Origin: a virus
UHGV virus genome: UHGV-0092215
Direction: 5' to 3' (one strand)
Length of the DNA: 18,743 nucleotides
Shown: positions 4,469-11,818 of the stretch, piece by piece
Position numbering within the stretch: the stretch's first letter is position 1
How the letters are laid out: each line of letters opens with the position of its first letter
Position numbers and translations under genes: made by a program
The notes under the pieces: generated by a model
The model's database searches: none
What the model saw: only the letters and a program-made list of their open reading frames with translations
Told to the model about the DNA's origin: nothing

Positions 4469-5158
4469 TCACATTTCTGCCACTTTGAGGGCTTCTTCTT
4501 CCTCATAGTATTCCAGAGCCATGGCCAATGCAGATTCATCAAGCTGCGTAAAAGCGGTCTTTAACCCAGCCCAGTGCCCTGAATAGACACGCAACCATGT
4601 CGAACGGTCAACGCTAACCATGCGGGCCAACGCTGCACCAGCATAGTCTTTATAGGTTTCATTATTTCTGGTTGCGGCAATTTCCTGCCCTGCCAGCCAT
4701 ACCAGGCCAATCAGTTTCTTTACTACGCGATCCTGAAGGGAATTATCACCCAGGCATTTCTGATAAGTTTTCCAGACGTATTCACACATCATCACCTGGT
4801 GCTTATAGCTAAGGTCAAAACCGTAGCAGTACCGCAACCAGGCCTGCTGGTATCCACTAAGCGCGGACACTGCCCTACGCCACGGCGCGGACTCAAATTC
4901 CGCATCTTTTATCGGCGGCATTGGCCTGCGGCGGCTGCGTGTTTCCAGTACATACAGTGGCGCGGAAAGCGAGTTAACAAAGCGTGGCCCCTTCTCTCCT
5001 TCGAGTTCGACGAGATGAATTCCACGGCGCGGGGTGGCATTTTTGTCTGCTGGTGGGTGTTCACTGAAAGCCTCAAGCTGCCCTTTTGTTCCCCCGGAGA
5101 GGTCAGGTAGCGCGCGGCGCAATTCTATTCTTACAAAATTCAGGTCTTGTTGATTCAT
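4469..5158 (-). CDS. putative late-gene antiterminator (Q-like, QuuQ/phage-82 type)
   Basis: 229 aa from the ATG at 5156-5158 (the ORF-track GTG at 5179 directly follows the upstream TAA and is the alternative start); followed by promoter-like sequence, strong terminator and lysis genes; a DUF968-like gene sits upstream as in E. coli Qin ydfU-quuQ. Family is from position and recall. Confidence 0.5.
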   Translation of the reverse strand: MNQQDLNFVRIELRRALPDLSGGTKGQLEAFSEHPPADKNATPRRGIHLVELEGEKGPRFVNSLSAPLYVLETRSRRRPMPPIKDAEFESAPWRRAVSALSGYQQAWLRYCYGFDLSYKHQVMMCEYVWKTYQKCLGDNSLQDRVVKKLIGLVWLAGQEIAATRNNETYKDYAGAALARMVSVDRSTWLRVYSGHWAGLKTAFTQLDESALAMALEYYEEEEALKVAEM

Positions 5159-5179: not shown

Positions 5180-6175
5180 TTAAGCTGTCGCAATTACGCC
5201 GATCGCCAGCGCCCGATCCATAAAACGCAGTAGCAGCTCAAGCTGCGTACCATGCTTCTGCTCGAATGCCGGTACATCGGCGTGCAGCTCGTCGTGACAC
5301 TCTCTGCACAGAGGGATCACGAATAGGTCATGGGCTTTTGTTGCTGTACCACCCATACCGTGCCCTACGATATGGTGCGGATCATCTGCTGGCCGTCGGC
5401 AACACTCACAGGGTTGTGTTTTAACCCAGCGGGTGTACGTCTCATTTACCCAGCGGCGACGTTTTGGCCTGAGCATGAAAGACTCTGGCGACTCCGGATC
5501 AACAGAAAGCGTGAGAATCTTTTTCGCCTTCTCCTGCACGAGGCTGGCTGCTGAAGCGGAAGGCACAATGTCACTTTCCCTCATGACTGAGCTGCTCTTC
5601 TCATCCGGAAGCCGTAACCCCTTATGCGCGACGCTTTCCGGTATAACATCAGCCAGGTCGTTCCTGACCATCCACCAGCACAGTTCCGGTAACGTCAGGA
5701 TATGCGACTCGGGAAAACCAGAATCGCGACGAATGACTTCCAGAATCCAGGATACCAGGTTTCCTGCCGCTATATCTGCAAGCTGCTCGGTATGTTGCCC
5801 GGACAGGATGTGATCGCAATGCCAGCACAGGCGAATGCTTCCTGGCTCGTGCCTCATAATTGTGAAGTTCTTGTCGTGCCACGATGAATGGGGCCACTGG
5901 CATTCAAACCGTGAACTCAGCCACTGCTCAAGGGAAGAAAGCCCACCGGCACGCTGTATAACCCGTTCATTCCCGAAGACCTGCCGCATTACCGGATCCT
6001 CCGCCAGCGGCTGAATGGCGGTGGGAACAGCCCCGGTACTGAATGACGCCATTTCTTCTGGTTCAGGCTCGAGCAGAACGCGACCGCGCATGAAGAGATG
6101 CATCAGTTCCGCTCCGGGACGAAACAACACAATCCCCATACGGGAGGCTATTTCAGGTGTGAGTAATGCCCTCAA
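5180..6175 (-). CDS. DUF968-like (YdfU-like) protein with C-terminal Cys/His-rich motif
   Basis: 331 aa ORF; C-terminus CECCRRPADDPHHIVGHGMGG...CRECHDELH looks like a zinc-binding or HNH-like module. The ORF-track start is TTG; an in-frame ATG at 6101-6103 has a GGAG RBS, so the true start is uncertain. Confidence 0.55.
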   Translation of the reverse strand: MRALLTPEIASRMGIVLFRPGAELMHLFMRGRVLLEPEPEEMASFSTGAVPTAIQPLAEDPVMRQVFGNERVIQRAGGLSSLEQWLSSRFECQWPHSSWHDKNFTIMRHEPGSIRLCWHCDHILSGQHTEQLADIAAGNLVSWILEVIRRDSGFPESHILTLPELCWWMVRNDLADVIPESVAHKGLRLPDEKSSSVMRESDIVPSASAASLVQEKAKKILTLSVDPESPESFMLRPKRRRWVNETYTRWVKTQPCECCRRPADDPHHIVGHGMGGTATKAHDLFVIPLCRECHDELHADVPAFEQKHGTQLELLLRFMDRALAIGVIATA

Positions 6176-7059
6176 TTGCCGCCACCAGCCAGTTCTTTAT
6201 CGTGGGTGAAACTCCCGTTCCAGGTCACCTTCATCGGAAGCTTCCCTTTCAGATAGTTTTTGTAGATCCAGGTGGCCCCTTCCCGAAGCAGAACCGGCTG
6301 ATAGGTGGTAAAGCTGACTGCTGAATTTGGAGAGACTTTGCTGCTTTTCTCAGTGAGGTATTTATCACGCGCGTATGACCGGACACGCCATTGTGCGCTG
6401 CGTCCTTCCGGATTGTCGTCATATAACCAGTTCATCGAAACAAGCCAGGCGCTAATTTTTGAGGTATTAACGCCATTCAGACGTTTACAGAACTGTACTG
6501 GGGAAAGCCCATCAGTGAAGAGGCTCTCGAGATGCTCGATATATTCGGCTTGCTGGTGGGTAAGCGCCTCAGCTTGCTGCTTTGCCTCCATGGCATCCGC
6601 CCACGCACGCGCCAGGGTTATTGGATCAGACATATTCGGCAGCATGACACCGTGGACCTCACGAAGATTGAAGTAATGATCTTCAAGCTGTTCAAAGAAG
6701 TCCCAGGCTAATTCGGTTTCAAGCATTTTTGCGTGGCGGGAGGCGCCGCGCTCAGTCCAGAGATAAAGGCTGCGAGCCTTTGATGATATTTGCACACTGC
6801 TGAAAGAGTTGCGCAAATTTTCGACTTCATCACCCTCAATTCGAAAGTAATGCTTACCCTCAACAAAACGCATTTTATTGCGGTTAAAGTTATTCGTGAT
6901 GTTTTGCGCTGTTGTACCGTAGCCGCTTGCTAAAGATTCCGTAGTCACTACGCGTTGATTGCGATAAGTGATCACCGGCACCGATGAGTGATTAACGGAA
7001 ATTACTGATGAAGTGCTATTTTTGGGCGTAGCAGTGCCCATAACATGATGATTGCTCAT
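6172..7059 (-). CDS. phage antirepressor-like protein (ORF6N-type N-terminal domain, KilA-C-like C-terminus)
   Basis: N-terminal region ...NITNNFNRNKMRFVEGKHYFRIEGDEVENL... matches the ORF6N pattern I recall; ATG at 7057-7059 with GGAGA RBS preferred over the ORF-track start at 7164, which would overlap rusA. Confidence 0.6.
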   Translation of the reverse strand: MSNHHVMGTATPKNSTSSVISVNHSSVPVITYRNQRVVTTESLASGYGTTAQNITNNFNRNKMRFVEGKHYFRIEGDEVENLRNSFSSVQISSKARSLYLWTERGASRHAKMLETELAWDFFEQLEDHYFNLREVHGVMLPNMSDPITLARAWADAMEAKQQAEALTHQQAEYIEHLESLFTDGLSPVQFCKRLNGVNTSKISAWLVSMNWLYDDNPEGRSAQWRVRSYARDKYLTEKSSKVSPNSAVSFTTYQPVLLREGATWIYKNYLKGKLPMKVTWNGSFTHDKELAGGGN

Positions 7060-7145
7060 ATTATCTCCATACTCTGATTGTTGCGAAGGGCCTGCACGCC
7101 CGTTTCGCTTGCACTTTCCGACATTACTGCCATATCGACCAATAT

Positions 7146-7544
7146 TCAACCCACAGCTGGACATATAACCACCTCTTTTTTATATGCCGTTATGGTTATC
7201 TCAACTTTTCCCTTCGGTACTATTGGCCCCCATTCCACCAGCATGCGCTTAATCTGGCTGTCGTCTTCCCAGACACCCGCATGCGTCAGCGCGTCAAACA
7301 GGGCTTTGTTGTAATTATCGATATCCCGGCGGCGCGCATCCGGCGGGTACAGAGTGATTTCTACCGCTGCCAGTTCAGTCGATGGCTTCGGGAGACGTCG
7401 TAATTGCTCAATGATCGCCACGCAGGCAGCGCTCTGGTATTTACGACCATTAGCGCTAATGAGGTGACGACCGGCCAGCGGCCCTTTGTTAGGGGCGCGC
7501 CAGTAAGCGTTTACGCTCGGAGGAAAAGGCAGGACCAGTTTCAC
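7146..7544 (-). CDS. rusA: crossover junction endodeoxyribonuclease RusA (Holliday junction resolvase)
   Basis: 132 aa; LPFPPSVNAYWR and RRRDIDNYNKALFDALTHAGVWEDDSQI match RusA; GTG start overlapping the upstream TGA (GTGA) with GGGGAGAGG RBS. Confidence 0.9.
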   Translation of the reverse strand: MKLVLPFPPSVNAYWRAPNKGPLAGRHLISANGRKYQSAACVAIIEQLRRLPKPSTELAAVEITLYPPDARRRDIDNYNKALFDALTHAGVWEDDSQIKRMLVEWGPIVPKGKVEITITAYKKEVVICPAVG

Positions 7545-9638: not shown

Positions 9639-10190
9639 TTATTTCTCCATACTCGAAGAGTTGTTCGCCAAGGCGCCCGGAGCTGCACACTCGCGGGCGT
9701 CACTCTTTTCTGGAAGGCAATAGACTCGTGAAATCAGGTTCAGAAACGTCATAAGCGTTACCCGGAACTGGTAGGCGATTTCGTTCAGACTGTCCCACTC
9801 CCCTTTATCAACCACACCATCATCGATGTATCGACGATATGCGTTAACCAGGTCACCAAGCCTGCCCACCAGCTCAGCCAGCTTTAAACCAATCTCTTCG
9901 TTCTCTGTTTCTGGTGCCGCGCCCGGGATATGGATCCCGTTATCGGTTTGACGAGAAAACGCATCAGCTATGTAGCTAACACCAGCAGCTTTCTGTAGCA
10001 CCATCGCCCACCCCATAGGGAAGATCTGATCCCCATCCACACGAAGGCGGTTAAACAGCGCATTCTCTGTTACCCCCAACCATTCCGCCGCCTCGGCATA
10101 GCCTCCAGGCAGGTCGGTAATCGTCTTTTTAATCGCTACCACCAGCCAGGAAGGCTGACGTTCGACTTTCCAAATAGGTTCGTTACCCAC
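9639..10190 (-). CDS. CII-like phage regulatory protein (183 aa)
   Basis: GTG start at 10188-10190 with GGAG RBS 6 nt upstream, 10 nt after the cro-like stop; HTH-like segment AEWLGVTENALFNRL; family assigned mainly from position. Confidence 0.5.
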   Translation of the reverse strand: MGNEPIWKVERQPSWLVVAIKKTITDLPGGYAEAAEWLGVTENALFNRLRVDGDQIFPMGWAMVLQKAAGVSYIADAFSRQTDNGIHIPGAAPETENEEIGLKLAELVGRLGDLVNAYRRYIDDGVVDKGEWDSLNEIAYQFRVTLMTFLNLISRVYCLPEKSDARECAAPGALANNSSSMEK

Positions 10191-10200
10191 GGCTTACTCC

Positions 10201-10446
10201 TTAGTTCTGTGGTTTTGTATCTGTATTCGCACCTGTACAGTTCGAATATCGATGCGGGTAAAGAATTTCTAGCTCATTGATTTTTCCTGAAAAGAAGCTG
10301 ACTAGTCGCTCAGCTATATCCAGGGAAGCAATTTGCTGTCCTCGCTCTATCCGACTTAGATTTCCCGGGTCGATATCGACACCTTTTGCGACATATGAAA
10401 GAGTCATACCTTGCGATTTACGCAAGATTCGTAACGGTGATTGCAT
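10201..10446 (-). CDS. cro: Cro-like HTH repressor (XRE family, 81 aa)
   Basis: HTH motif MTLSYVAKGVDIDPGNLSRIERGQQ; AAGGAGG RBS 4 nt upstream of the ATG; divergent from the CI-like gene across an operator region. Confidence 0.8.
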   Translation of the reverse strand: MQSPLRILRKSQGMTLSYVAKGVDIDPGNLSRIERGQQIASLDIAERLVSFFSGKINELEILYPHRYSNCTGANTDTKPQN

Positions 10447-10543
10447 ATACCCTCCTTTAATTGCGTAATACGCATATTAATTGGAACATACGACTTGCGC
10501 AAGTTGCTTTGCACATCACGCAAAAACAACATGTAATAGGCGC
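10447..10543. promoter_or_regulatory. divergent immunity control region (OR-like operators with PR and PRM-like promoters)
   Basis: Palindromes TTGCGTAATACGCAT (10461-10475), ACTTGCGCAAGT (10493-10504) and TTGCACATCACGCAA (10509-10523); plus-strand TTGCAC-17-TGTAAT places a start at about the cI ATG; minus-strand TTGCGC-17-TAATAT serves cro. Confidence 0.6.
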
Positions 10544-11236
10544 ATGAATATTGGAAACCGCATAAGAGAACTTCGCACTGCGAAGGGCCTGAAAATCGCT
10601 GATCTTGCAGAGGCTGTCGGTGTCGACGGCGCAAATATCTCTCGCCTTGAAACCGGCAAGCAGAAGTCATTTACTGAACAATCACTTAGTAAATATGCTG
10701 AAGCTTTAGGCGTTAGTGTCGCTGAGCTATTTACTCCTAGTGGAAATGCAACTACTGTATATAAAAACAGTGTAACAGCCCCACATATTGGAGATGACTC
10801 GGTGTTTAGAGTGGAAATTCTTGATGTTAGCGCTAGCGCTGGCGGAGGCTTTATTCAAGGTAGCGACGTTATAGATGTCATCAGATCCATCGAATACAAC
10901 AACGAGCGTGCTTTATCCATGTTCGGTGGTCGGGCAGCTGAGCAAGTGAAGGTAATCAACGTTCGTGGCGATAGCATGGCAGAGACTATTGAGCCTGGCG
11001 ACCTGATTTTCGTTGATATTTCAATACATGAATTCGACGGCGATGGTATATATGTATTTGGTTTTGATGACAAAATATATGTTAAGCGTTTGCAGATGAT
11101 ACCAGACCAATTGCTAGTAATATCAGATAACCCAAAATATCGAGAGTGGTCTGTCGATAAATCGAATGAGCATCGTTTTTATGTCTACGGGAAAGTAATG
11201 ATAAGCCAATCTCAGTCATTTAAACGCCACGCCTAG
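10544..11236 (+). CDS. cI: CI-like prophage repressor (N-terminal HTH, C-terminal S24 LexA-like peptidase domain)
   Basis: 230 aa from ATG 10544; HTH LKIADLAEAVGVDGANISRLETGKQ; C-terminal GDSMAETIEPGDLIFVD...YVKRL typical of S24 self-cleaving repressors. Confidence 0.9.
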   Translation: MNIGNRIRELRTAKGLKIADLAEAVGVDGANISRLETGKQKSFTEQSLSKYAEALGVSVAELFTPSGNATTVYKNSVTAPHIGDDSVFRVEILDVSASAGGGFIQGSDVIDVIRSIEYNNERALSMFGGRAAEQVKVINVRGDSMAETIEPGDLIFVDISIHEFDGDGIYVFGFDDKIYVKRLQMIPDQLLVISDNPKYREWSVDKSNEHRFYVYGKVMISQSQSFKRHA

Positions 11237-11254
11237 TCTATATATCCTTTCAGA

Positions 11255-11279
11255 AACCGCCAGTCAGGCGGTTTTTTTT
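11255..11279 (+). terminator. intrinsic terminator downstream of cI
   Basis: AACCGCC-AGTCA-GGCGGTT followed by a run of 8 T. Confidence 0.75.
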
Positions 11280-11290
11280 CGCCATGACAA

Positions 11291-11328
11291 TTGCATTTTA
11301 CGCAATTTATTACTTGCGCAATACGCAA
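11291..11328. promoter_or_regulatory. OL-like operator pair with candidate early-left promoter
   Basis: TTGCATTTTACGCAA (11291-11305) and TTGCGCAATACGCAA (11314-11328) share the TTGCR-N5-CGCAA pattern of the sites between cro and cI; TTGCGC-17-TATCGT is a weak promoter candidate. Confidence 0.45.
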
Positions 11329-11452
11329 TTTAGATTTATCGTTATTCACATCAACAGCGAACAGGCAGGACGCCCACGAAGTAGCCGCCGGTGGCGTATG
11401 AATGACCGGATGATTCGCTGACAGAAAACTAAGGTTAGGGGCAGAGGTTTAC

Positions 11453-11818
11453 ATGAATCATTTATTCACATGCTCATTTTGTGGAGCAACCGAACTGGTA
11501 GCGATGAAGATCGTCGCAAAAGGTGGTAAGGACGAACCTGCTATCTGTTCGGAATGCGTAGTCACATGTGTAGAAAAAATGATCCTGACTAAAAAATCAG
11601 AGGCTGAAAAACCAACCCCTGATAACGAAATAATATCAGTCGATAAAAAACTATTTAAAGAGCTTCTTCAGCTTGTCCTCAACCTTCCTGATTTCGGAAG
11701 TAAGCTGGCTGCTGTTGACATTGATAGTGGCTCCACATCGACAAGTGAAACTTTTGTTCGACTTGAGCCAAGCGATTTTCTTCTTCGTCTTAGCGCCGCA
11801 CTTAGGGCATGCGGGTAA
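11453..11818 (+). CDS. small protein with ClpX-type N-terminal C4 zinc-binding domain (121 aa), first gene of the early-left operon
   Basis: ATG 11453 with GAGG RBS 5 nt upstream; CSFCGATELVAMKIVAKGGKDEPAICSECVVTCVEKMI resembles the ClpX N-terminal zinc-binding domain (CSFCGK...KLIAG...YICDECVDLC); C-terminal 75 aa unassigned and overlapped by an antisense ORF. Confidence 0.55.
   Translation: MNHLFTCSFCGATELVAMKIVAKGGKDEPAICSECVVTCVEKMILTKKSEAEKPTPDNEIISVDKKLFKELLQLVLNLPDFGSKLAAVDIDSGSTSTSETFVRLEPSDFLLRLSAALRACG

Follow-up and report, generated by a model that had tools for sequence, protein, structure and literature searches.

A probable lambda-type immunity switch with a 434-type repressor, one shared 15-bp operator motif and a probably leaderless cI in the viral genome UHGV-0092215

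In this work, the region around the divergent cI and cro-like genes of the virus genome UHGV-0092215 was analyzed within a stretch of 18,743 nucleotides (nt), which is referred to as the window. Positions 10201–11342 very probably represent the immunity region of a lambdoid prophage, and DNA similarity places this region in the e14/ST64B/SfII/phiNP module family. The cro-like gene lies on the minus strand (10446 to 10201) and cI on the plus strand (10544 to 11236), and the two genes diverge from a spacer of 97 nt. The comparison with related loci supports the original prediction, made from the sequence of the window, that copies of one operator motif flank cI on both sides and that cI is probably leaderless. 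It is thus likely that the region works as a lambda-type switch with a 434-type repressor. A cI/cro switch with copies of one 15-bp motif is a well conserved but ordinary case of a known design.

The motif TTGCR-N5-CGCAA was found exactly at 10411, 10509, 11291, and 11314 when the whole window was searched. These are six strand matches at four loci, compared with a mean of 0.27 in shuffled sequences, and none of 200 shuffles reached six. With one mismatch allowed, nine matches were found against 4.5 expected, and five of the nine lie inside the immunity region; those at 5108, 7762, and 17270 were dropped because such an excess is compatible with chance. Between cro and cI, operator C (TTGCACATCACGCAA, 10509–10523, OR3-like) is an exact copy of the motif, and its left half is also the predicted −35 of the cI promoter. 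Operator A (TTGCGTAATACGCAT, 10461–10475, OR1-like) has one mismatch and ends in CGCAT instead of CGCAA, since it overlaps the predicted −10 of the rightward promoter PR, with the last two bases common to both. Of the two 15-mers that had been claimed for this spacer, one is therefore exact and the other imperfect, and the palindrome claimed for the same spacer is present at 10493–10504 (ACTTGCGCAAGT, core TTGCGCAA at 10495–10502). The two sites claimed right after the cI terminator are both exact, namely OL1 (TTGCATTTTACGCAA, 11291–11305) and OL2 (TTGCGCAATACGCAA, 11314–11328), the left half of which, TTGCGC, is also the predicted −35 of the leftward promoter PL. The intrinsic terminator of the cI transcript (11252–11279, plus strand) consists of a hairpin at 11252–11276 and a U-run (−14.2 kcal/mol, z −4.0), and an equivalent hairpin with a T-run follows cI in relatives. 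A simple terminator scan missed it, probably because greedy stem extension took up the U-run, and folding confirmed it. Only 54 nt separate the cI stop (11236) from the first downstream operator, so there is no cargo gene between cI and OL, and the compact OR/OL pair without rexAB-like cargo holds as it had been described; the absence of such cargo is in itself unremarkable. A fifth site had escaped the original prediction; it lies inside cro and outside the interval considered there. This site (TTGCGATTTACGCAA, 10411–10425, cro codons 8–12) is exact on both strands and perfectly symmetric, the best palindrome among the sites.

The conservation of these sites was followed in 103 related loci with a repressor identity of 43–94%, which belong to at least a dozen enterobacterial genera. 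They were taken from Kluyvera, Klebsiella, Buttiauxella, Trabulsiella, Citrobacter, Shigella, Pantoea, Mixta, Dryocola, Proteus, Serratia, Atlantibacter, and Phaseolibacter genomes and from IMG/VR contigs, and they yielded 74 distinct cro–cI spacers with a mean pairwise identity of 69%, together with 81 distinct regions downstream of cI. The cro and cI ATGs were 97–99 nt apart in 99 of the 103 loci, so the spacers could be stacked on the cI ATG without gaps. In this stack, the first base of site A is at −83 from the cI ATG, with an exact match to TTGCR-N5-YGCA(A/T) in 70 of 74 spacers, and site C, which begins at −35, is exact in 67. The half-sites hold about 1.6 bits per position, the 5-bp centres 0.7–1.1 bits, and the unconstrained part of the spacer (−64 to −50) 0.56 bits; such a profile is the shape expected of a helix-turn-helix (HTH) dimer. 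The right halves (YGCAA) are conserved as strongly as the left halves, exactly 10 bp away. Downstream of cI, two sites 22–24 bp apart, mostly 23, were present in 73 of 81 regions and begin about 50–90 nt past the cI stop. The closest repressors, 94% identical, belong to Kluyvera sichuanensis and one IMG/VR contig; the exact immunity cassette of the window was found in no phage record and no E. coli genome searched.

Within the spacer, conservation is highest in the palindrome, in relatives TTGCGCAAG, with 1.68 bits per position at −49 to −41. It is composed of both half-sites with zero spacer, and the same dimer could not bind it in the same mode. The minus-strand TTGCGC of its core is the predicted −35 of PR, and the conservation of the palindrome exceeds what a −35 hexamer would need. 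The 15-mer at 10488–10502 (ATACGACTTGCGCAA) ends in the CGCAA of the palindrome, 27 bp from site A and 21 bp from site C. It was not counted as a full middle operator, as its left half has one to four mismatches in relatives and the right half alone is conserved. In the right region, the strong sites are thus spaced by 48 and 50 bp, with a half-conserved middle site, compared with two sites 23 bp apart in OL. The palindrome was near-invariant from Kluyvera to Phaseolibacter, with repressor identity down to 43%. It also occurs again just past the cI stop in one related locus (L004) and upstream in two others (L016 and L017).

The operator inside cro is spelled by codons 8–12, Leu-Arg-Lys-Ser-Gln (TTG CGT AAA TCG CAA on the coding strand). 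Codon use at these positions was compared in 70 distinct cro genes with that for the same amino acid elsewhere in the same genes. Leu at codon 8 was TTG in 63 of 63 cases (17% elsewhere), and Ser at codon 11 was TCG in 61 of 61 (10% elsewhere). Arg at codon 9 was CGN in all 70 genes with the third base free, compared with 69% CGN and 31% AGR elsewhere, and Gln at codon 12 was CAA in 36 of 37 (52% elsewhere); all these counts are not independent owing to common descent, though the control codons come from the same genes. The nearby codons 5, 6, 16, and 17 for the same amino acids vary freely in these genes. Synonymous changes within the site were confined to its N5 centre, which indicates a constraint on the DNA itself in addition to that of the coding sequence. 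Lineages with other Cro N-termini are without the codon 8–12 site and have instead one at −113, −112, or −104. A possible partner 25 bp away, the site at 10386 (TTGCGACATATGAAA), was rejected because its GCA Ala codon varies freely in relatives.

Both proteins fit this type of operator. CI (10544–11236, plus strand, 230 amino acids) matches the Pfam families HTH_3 (4e-12) and Peptidase_S24 (5.8e-20). By comparing its N-terminal domain (residues 2–65) with the PDB in phmmer, the best matches were dh434 (1sq8, 9.6e-6) and the 434 repressor (1per, 2e-4). The candidate cleavage site is Ala99-Gly100, and the candidate catalytic residues are Ser144, within GDSM, and Lys181. The Ser-to-Lys spacing is 37 residues, as it is in LexA. 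Judged by these matches, CI combines a 434-type HTH with a LexA-like S24 domain. The cro-like gene (10201–10446, minus strand) encodes 81 amino acids with an HTH_3 domain (Pfam E 2e-10) and the recognition helix PGNLSRIERGQQ. Cro and the HTH of CI share 38% identity over 34 residues (E 1e-8), which makes them paralogues. The helix N-[IL]-S-R-[LI]-E-x-G-x-Q is common to CI and Cro and invariant across the family, as are the half-sites. Furthermore, where relatives combine the S24 domain with another N-terminal domain, as in e14 YmfK and BTP1 CI, the repeats at the corresponding place differ. All this fits the suggestion that CI and Cro read TTGC/GCAA. The half-sites and both recognition helices were the same in no fewer than a dozen genera and in 541 relatives from IMG/VR, with differences only in the N5 centres and flanks. 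Given the common half-sites and helix, any heteroimmunity in the group would have to be encoded elsewhere or be absent. The ST64B repressor is 72% identical to CI and has the same sites and architecture. In Salmonella D23580, where its gene is STMMW_20241 with a start at 2098186, it was expressed at 65–520 transcripts per million in all 17 conditions, and its cro-like neighbour was increased under peroxide and nitric oxide shock (PMC7067206).

Three promoters are predicted from conserved geometry. PR, on the minus strand, has the −35 TTGCGC (10502 to 10497, in the palindrome core), a 17-nt spacer, and the −10 TAATAT (10479 to 10474), the hexamer of which holds 1.48 bits per position among the 74 spacers. 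Site A covers the last two bases of this −10 and the predicted start. The predicted PR leader is 21 nt, and GGAGGG (10450–10455, minus strand), read from the sequence as the Shine-Dalgarno (SD) element of cro, stands ahead of the gene. The PRM-like promoter of cI, on the plus strand, has the −35 TTGCAC (10509–10514, the left half of site C), 17 nt, and the −10 TGTAAT (10532–10537). PL, also on the plus strand, has the −35 TTGCGC (11314–11319, the left half of OL2), 17 nt, and the −10 TATCGT (11337–11342); OL1 lies 23 bp upstream, and TATCNT or TATTGT stands at the PL −10 register in relatives.

The cI mRNA most likely starts at its own AUG, as judged from the position of the promoter. TGTAAT stands at −12 to −7 of the cI ATG in 65 of 74 spacers (1.68 bits per position), with a few shifted by one base, and the six bases that follow it occur in 23 different forms. 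The A of the cI ATG (10544) is the seventh base after the −10 hexamer, the usual start position. The plus-strand promoter TTGCAC-17-TGTAAT of the original prediction is thus arithmetically correct, with 6 nt and then the A of the ATG, and its claim of a start at or within a few nt of the ATG agrees with a −10-to-ATG distance kept in these 65 spacers. Its claim that cI has no SD element also stands, as pairing with the anti-SD equals that of shuffled sequence: for the upstream 18 nt against 16S, the family mean was −2.0 kcal/mol for cI, −1.8 for shuffled sequence, and −10.9 for cro, and in the window the values are −2.4 for cI and −12.1 for cro. All homologues begin with MNIGN, and many have an in-frame stop at −6, −18, −30, or −39, so there is no conserved N-terminal extension of CI. 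Lambda PRM has the same layout (TAGATT, 6 nt, ATG), and its cI mRNA is leaderless. In e14, ymfK has TTTAAT, then TTCGTT, then ATG. By differential RNA sequencing, ymfK is among five leaderless mRNAs in E. coli K-12, together with the prophage regulators racR and dicA (PMC4681348), and cI of PY54 was found to be leaderless by rapid amplification of cDNA ends (PMC4488713). Two annotated starts were also seen to deviate. For the cI of phiNP (OR565852.1, L001), the annotated start lies 15 codons past the conserved MNIGN (2475, compared with 2430). The c1 of BTP1 (L112) is annotated from an upstream TTG, the ATG being 12 codons in (450 vs ~486), with −10-like TATAAA/TAAATT before the ATG. Both fit gene callers failing at starts without an SD element.

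We hypothesize that the switch operates as follows. CI dimers would bind the 15-bp dyad TTGCR-N5-YGCA(A/T). On the left pair of sites, 23 bp apart, CI would shut off the leftward early operon, the promoter-proximal site supplying the predicted −35 of PL. At site A, over the PR −10 and start, it would silence cro and the rightward operon, and site C, which holds the −35 of the cI promoter, would give negative autoregulation of cI. The site in cro codons 8–12 may act as a third anchor, either as a cooperative partner or as a roadblock. Cro has the same N-[IL]-S-R-[LI]-E helix and presumably reads these half-sites too, ranking them in another order. In the lysogen, cI would be transcribed from TTGCAC-17-TGTAAT, and since this transcript would begin at the A of the AUG, cI would be translated as a leaderless mRNA, like that of lambda PRM. 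Induction would probably consist of RecA-stimulated self-cleavage of CI at Ala99-Gly100. In addition, there may be a second induction route, because the rightward operon contains a gene for an Ant-like anti-repressor (6172–7164, minus strand, phrog_63, E 1.5e-46).

Several points weigh against this scheme. The relatives share descent, so counts across them overstate independence. The distances from A to C (48 bp) and from the cro site to A (50 bp) are not whole helical turns, and a well-conserved full middle site equivalent to OR2 is missing, with the right half alone conserved. A simple consensus promoter scan reported no promoter at the locus. All three −35 hexamers are TTGCRN and weak, with three of six consensus matches, which accounts for the empty scan; the promoters thus rest on conserved geometry and not on consensus strength. 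Moreover, the −35 and the operator half-site coincide base for base, and therefore their conservation is not assignable to one function. At cI, positions −6 to −1 are often RGRCGC, with AGG or GGA 3–4 nt from the ATG, which is probably too close for a normal SD. Finally, neither binding or footprint data nor mapped transcription starts were found in the literature searched, be it for this element or for members of the same specificity.

The sharing of bases leads to the question of whether the TTGCR blocks are conserved mainly as −35 elements, so that the 15-bp dyads arise as a side effect and the repressor has another target. All three predicted −35 hexamers do coincide with a left half-site, and the palindrome core doubles as the PR −35. 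Nevertheless, we consider this very unlikely, because the YGCAA right halves 10 bp away are equally conserved, site A lies at the PR −10 and start, OL1 and the cro site are at no −35, and the cro site restricts synonymous codons. A reading in which the operators are real and cI is expressed mainly from a promoter further upstream, as an internal AUG on a long leader, is somewhat less improbable and still unlikely. Such a promoter could be, for example, CII-activated and PRE-like, in or beyond cro. A CII-like gene (phrog_101) follows cro, so that an establishment promoter toward cI would be expected by analogy with lambda, and the PRM-like −35 is weak. However, an establishment promoter would work alongside the maintenance promoter rather than in its place, and a longer cI transcript would have no SD available either. 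No other conserved −35/−10 pair was found upstream on the plus strand, 65 of 74 spacers keep the −10 at −12 to −7 with the bases behind it varying, and the lambda-type CII site TTGC-N6-TTGC, searched for across the window, is absent.

The absence of this direct repeat also bears on whether the motif is bound by a factor other than CI and Cro, such as the CII-like protein, a partner of the Ant-like anti-repressor, or a host regulator. TTGC is also the half-site of lambda CII. On the other hand, the sites occupy the early promoters to either side of cI, where immunity operators characteristically lie, the recognition helices of CI and Cro and the half-sites are both invariant across the family, and a swapped CI N-terminal domain goes with different repeats at the same place. 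A different factor thus appears most improbable. The preferred reading, in which CI and Cro bind the 15-bp dyads of a lambda-type switch, leaves the form of the right region to be considered. There is a small chance that this region is not a lambda OR1-OR2-OR3 triplet but consists of three full operators about 50 bp apart, one of them in cro codons 8–12, where coding and binding would both constrain the sequence, plus the invariant 8-bp palindrome TTGCGCAA. If CI and Cro were to read the half-site at different spacings (15-mer and 8-mer), the switch logic would be unlike that of every characterised lambdoid phage, and the same would apply if the cro site were a roadblock or loop anchor.

Beyond the switch itself, the CII-like activator gene comes after cro (9639–10190, minus strand, phrog_101, E 9e-42). 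Further along the minus strand, it is followed by genes for an O-like replication initiator, a DNA methyltransferase, and the Ant-like anti-repressor. The plus-strand early genes beyond the cI terminator include those for a ClpX-zinc-finger-like protein and RdgC. The first gene of the leftward operon (11453–11818, plus strand) encodes 121 amino acids with an N-terminal ClpX-type C4 zinc finger (PF06689, 1.3e-6; phrog_20296), and the first gene past the PL leader varies among relatives.

A conserved element of about 75 nt was observed at the 5′ end of the PL transcript (11346–11425, plus strand), just after the predicted PL −10. It consists of CATCAACAGCGAACAGGCAGGACGCCCACGAAGTAGCCGCC, a hairpin, and GGATGATTCGC, and it has at least 28 distinct forms among the related loci. 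It was found in 53 phage records, including ST64B, SfII, SfV, SfIV, phiNP, ZF40, Yersinia YeP1/3, and e14, irrespective of immunity type, and in part also in T5-like Providencia phages, and it is annotated in none of the 53. Its inner stem covaries (CCGGT/ACCGG, CCCGG/CCGGG, CCTGG/CCAGG, CCCCA/TGGGG, CCGAT/ATCGG), with compensatory changes in 4 of 15 predicted pairs. An Rfam search of the element with E up to 10 gave no match, as did an Rfam search of the whole window. For SfV, an RNA-based, termination-mediated immunity was reported by Roberts et al. (2007), as cited in PMC3475682, and the element may be related to it. A search for P4-like antisense targets of the element found none, the best complementary match being an 8-mer. 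Identity with the Salmonella non-coding RNA STnc1310 was rejected, as by coordinates STnc1310 lies about 150 nt further downstream.

The analysis provides an operator consensus, TTGCR-N5-YGCA(A/T), and maps the predicted promoters of an immunity type that is very common among enterobacterial prophages, with 541 relatives in IMG/VR alone, and that covers Salmonella ST64B, Shigella SfII, Citrobacter rodentium phiNP, and some Stx2 phages. The case also adds to the link between prophage repressors and leaderless mRNAs, and such genes are prone to wrong start annotation. The concept repeats the lambda design and opens no new question.

By comparing the region with lambda, the likeness is seen in the divergent cI and cro, with starts about 77 bp apart here, in operators that cover both the PR −10 and start and the cI promoter, and in the S24 self-cleavage repressor. 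Beyond cI, lambda also has a second cluster of operators at PL, in the reading direction of cI, and the same order of −10, 6 nt, and ATG with an mRNA start at the AUG. The differences are that the HTH here is of the 434/XRE type and the operator a 15-bp TTGCR-N5-YGCAA dyad, that there are two OL sites and not three, no well-formed OR2 (a half site), and an extra operator in cro. Moreover, instead of the lambda Cro fold, Cro here has an HTH_3 domain paralogous to the N-terminal domain of CI, rexAB is missing, and the predicted −35 hexamers of PL and of the cI promoter are formed by operator half-sites. Phage 434 is similar in that its repressor and Cro are paralogous all-helical HTH proteins acting on the same dyad operators, but its operators are 14-bp ACAA-N6-TTGT, its helix is QQSIEQ compared with GANISR here, and the identity is low.

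Among closer relatives, ymfK-ymfT of e14 belongs to the same module family, with a YmfL/CII-like neighbour and a common PL leader sequence, and ymfK has the same −10, 6 nt, ATG geometry and a leaderless mRNA (PMC4681348). Its immunity specificity is however another one, as YmfK aligns in the S24 domain only (32% over 72 amino acids) and the repeats are of the GTAC type. ST64B Sb38/Sb39, Shigella SfII cI/cro, Citrobacter phiNP, Stx2a_1447, and mEp460 have repressors 71–83% identical to CI with the same sites and geometry; no description of operators or transcription starts was found in the literature searched for ST64B, SfII, SfV, serotype-converting phages, and relatives of the same specificity. 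Phage 933W has two OL sites, and CI of the lactococcal phage TP901-1 binds a third operator (OD) inside the cro-like gene mor. The proteins and operator sequences of both phages are unrelated to those here, and the likeness would be one of arrangement. It would mean that neither two OL sites nor an operator within cro is without precedent.

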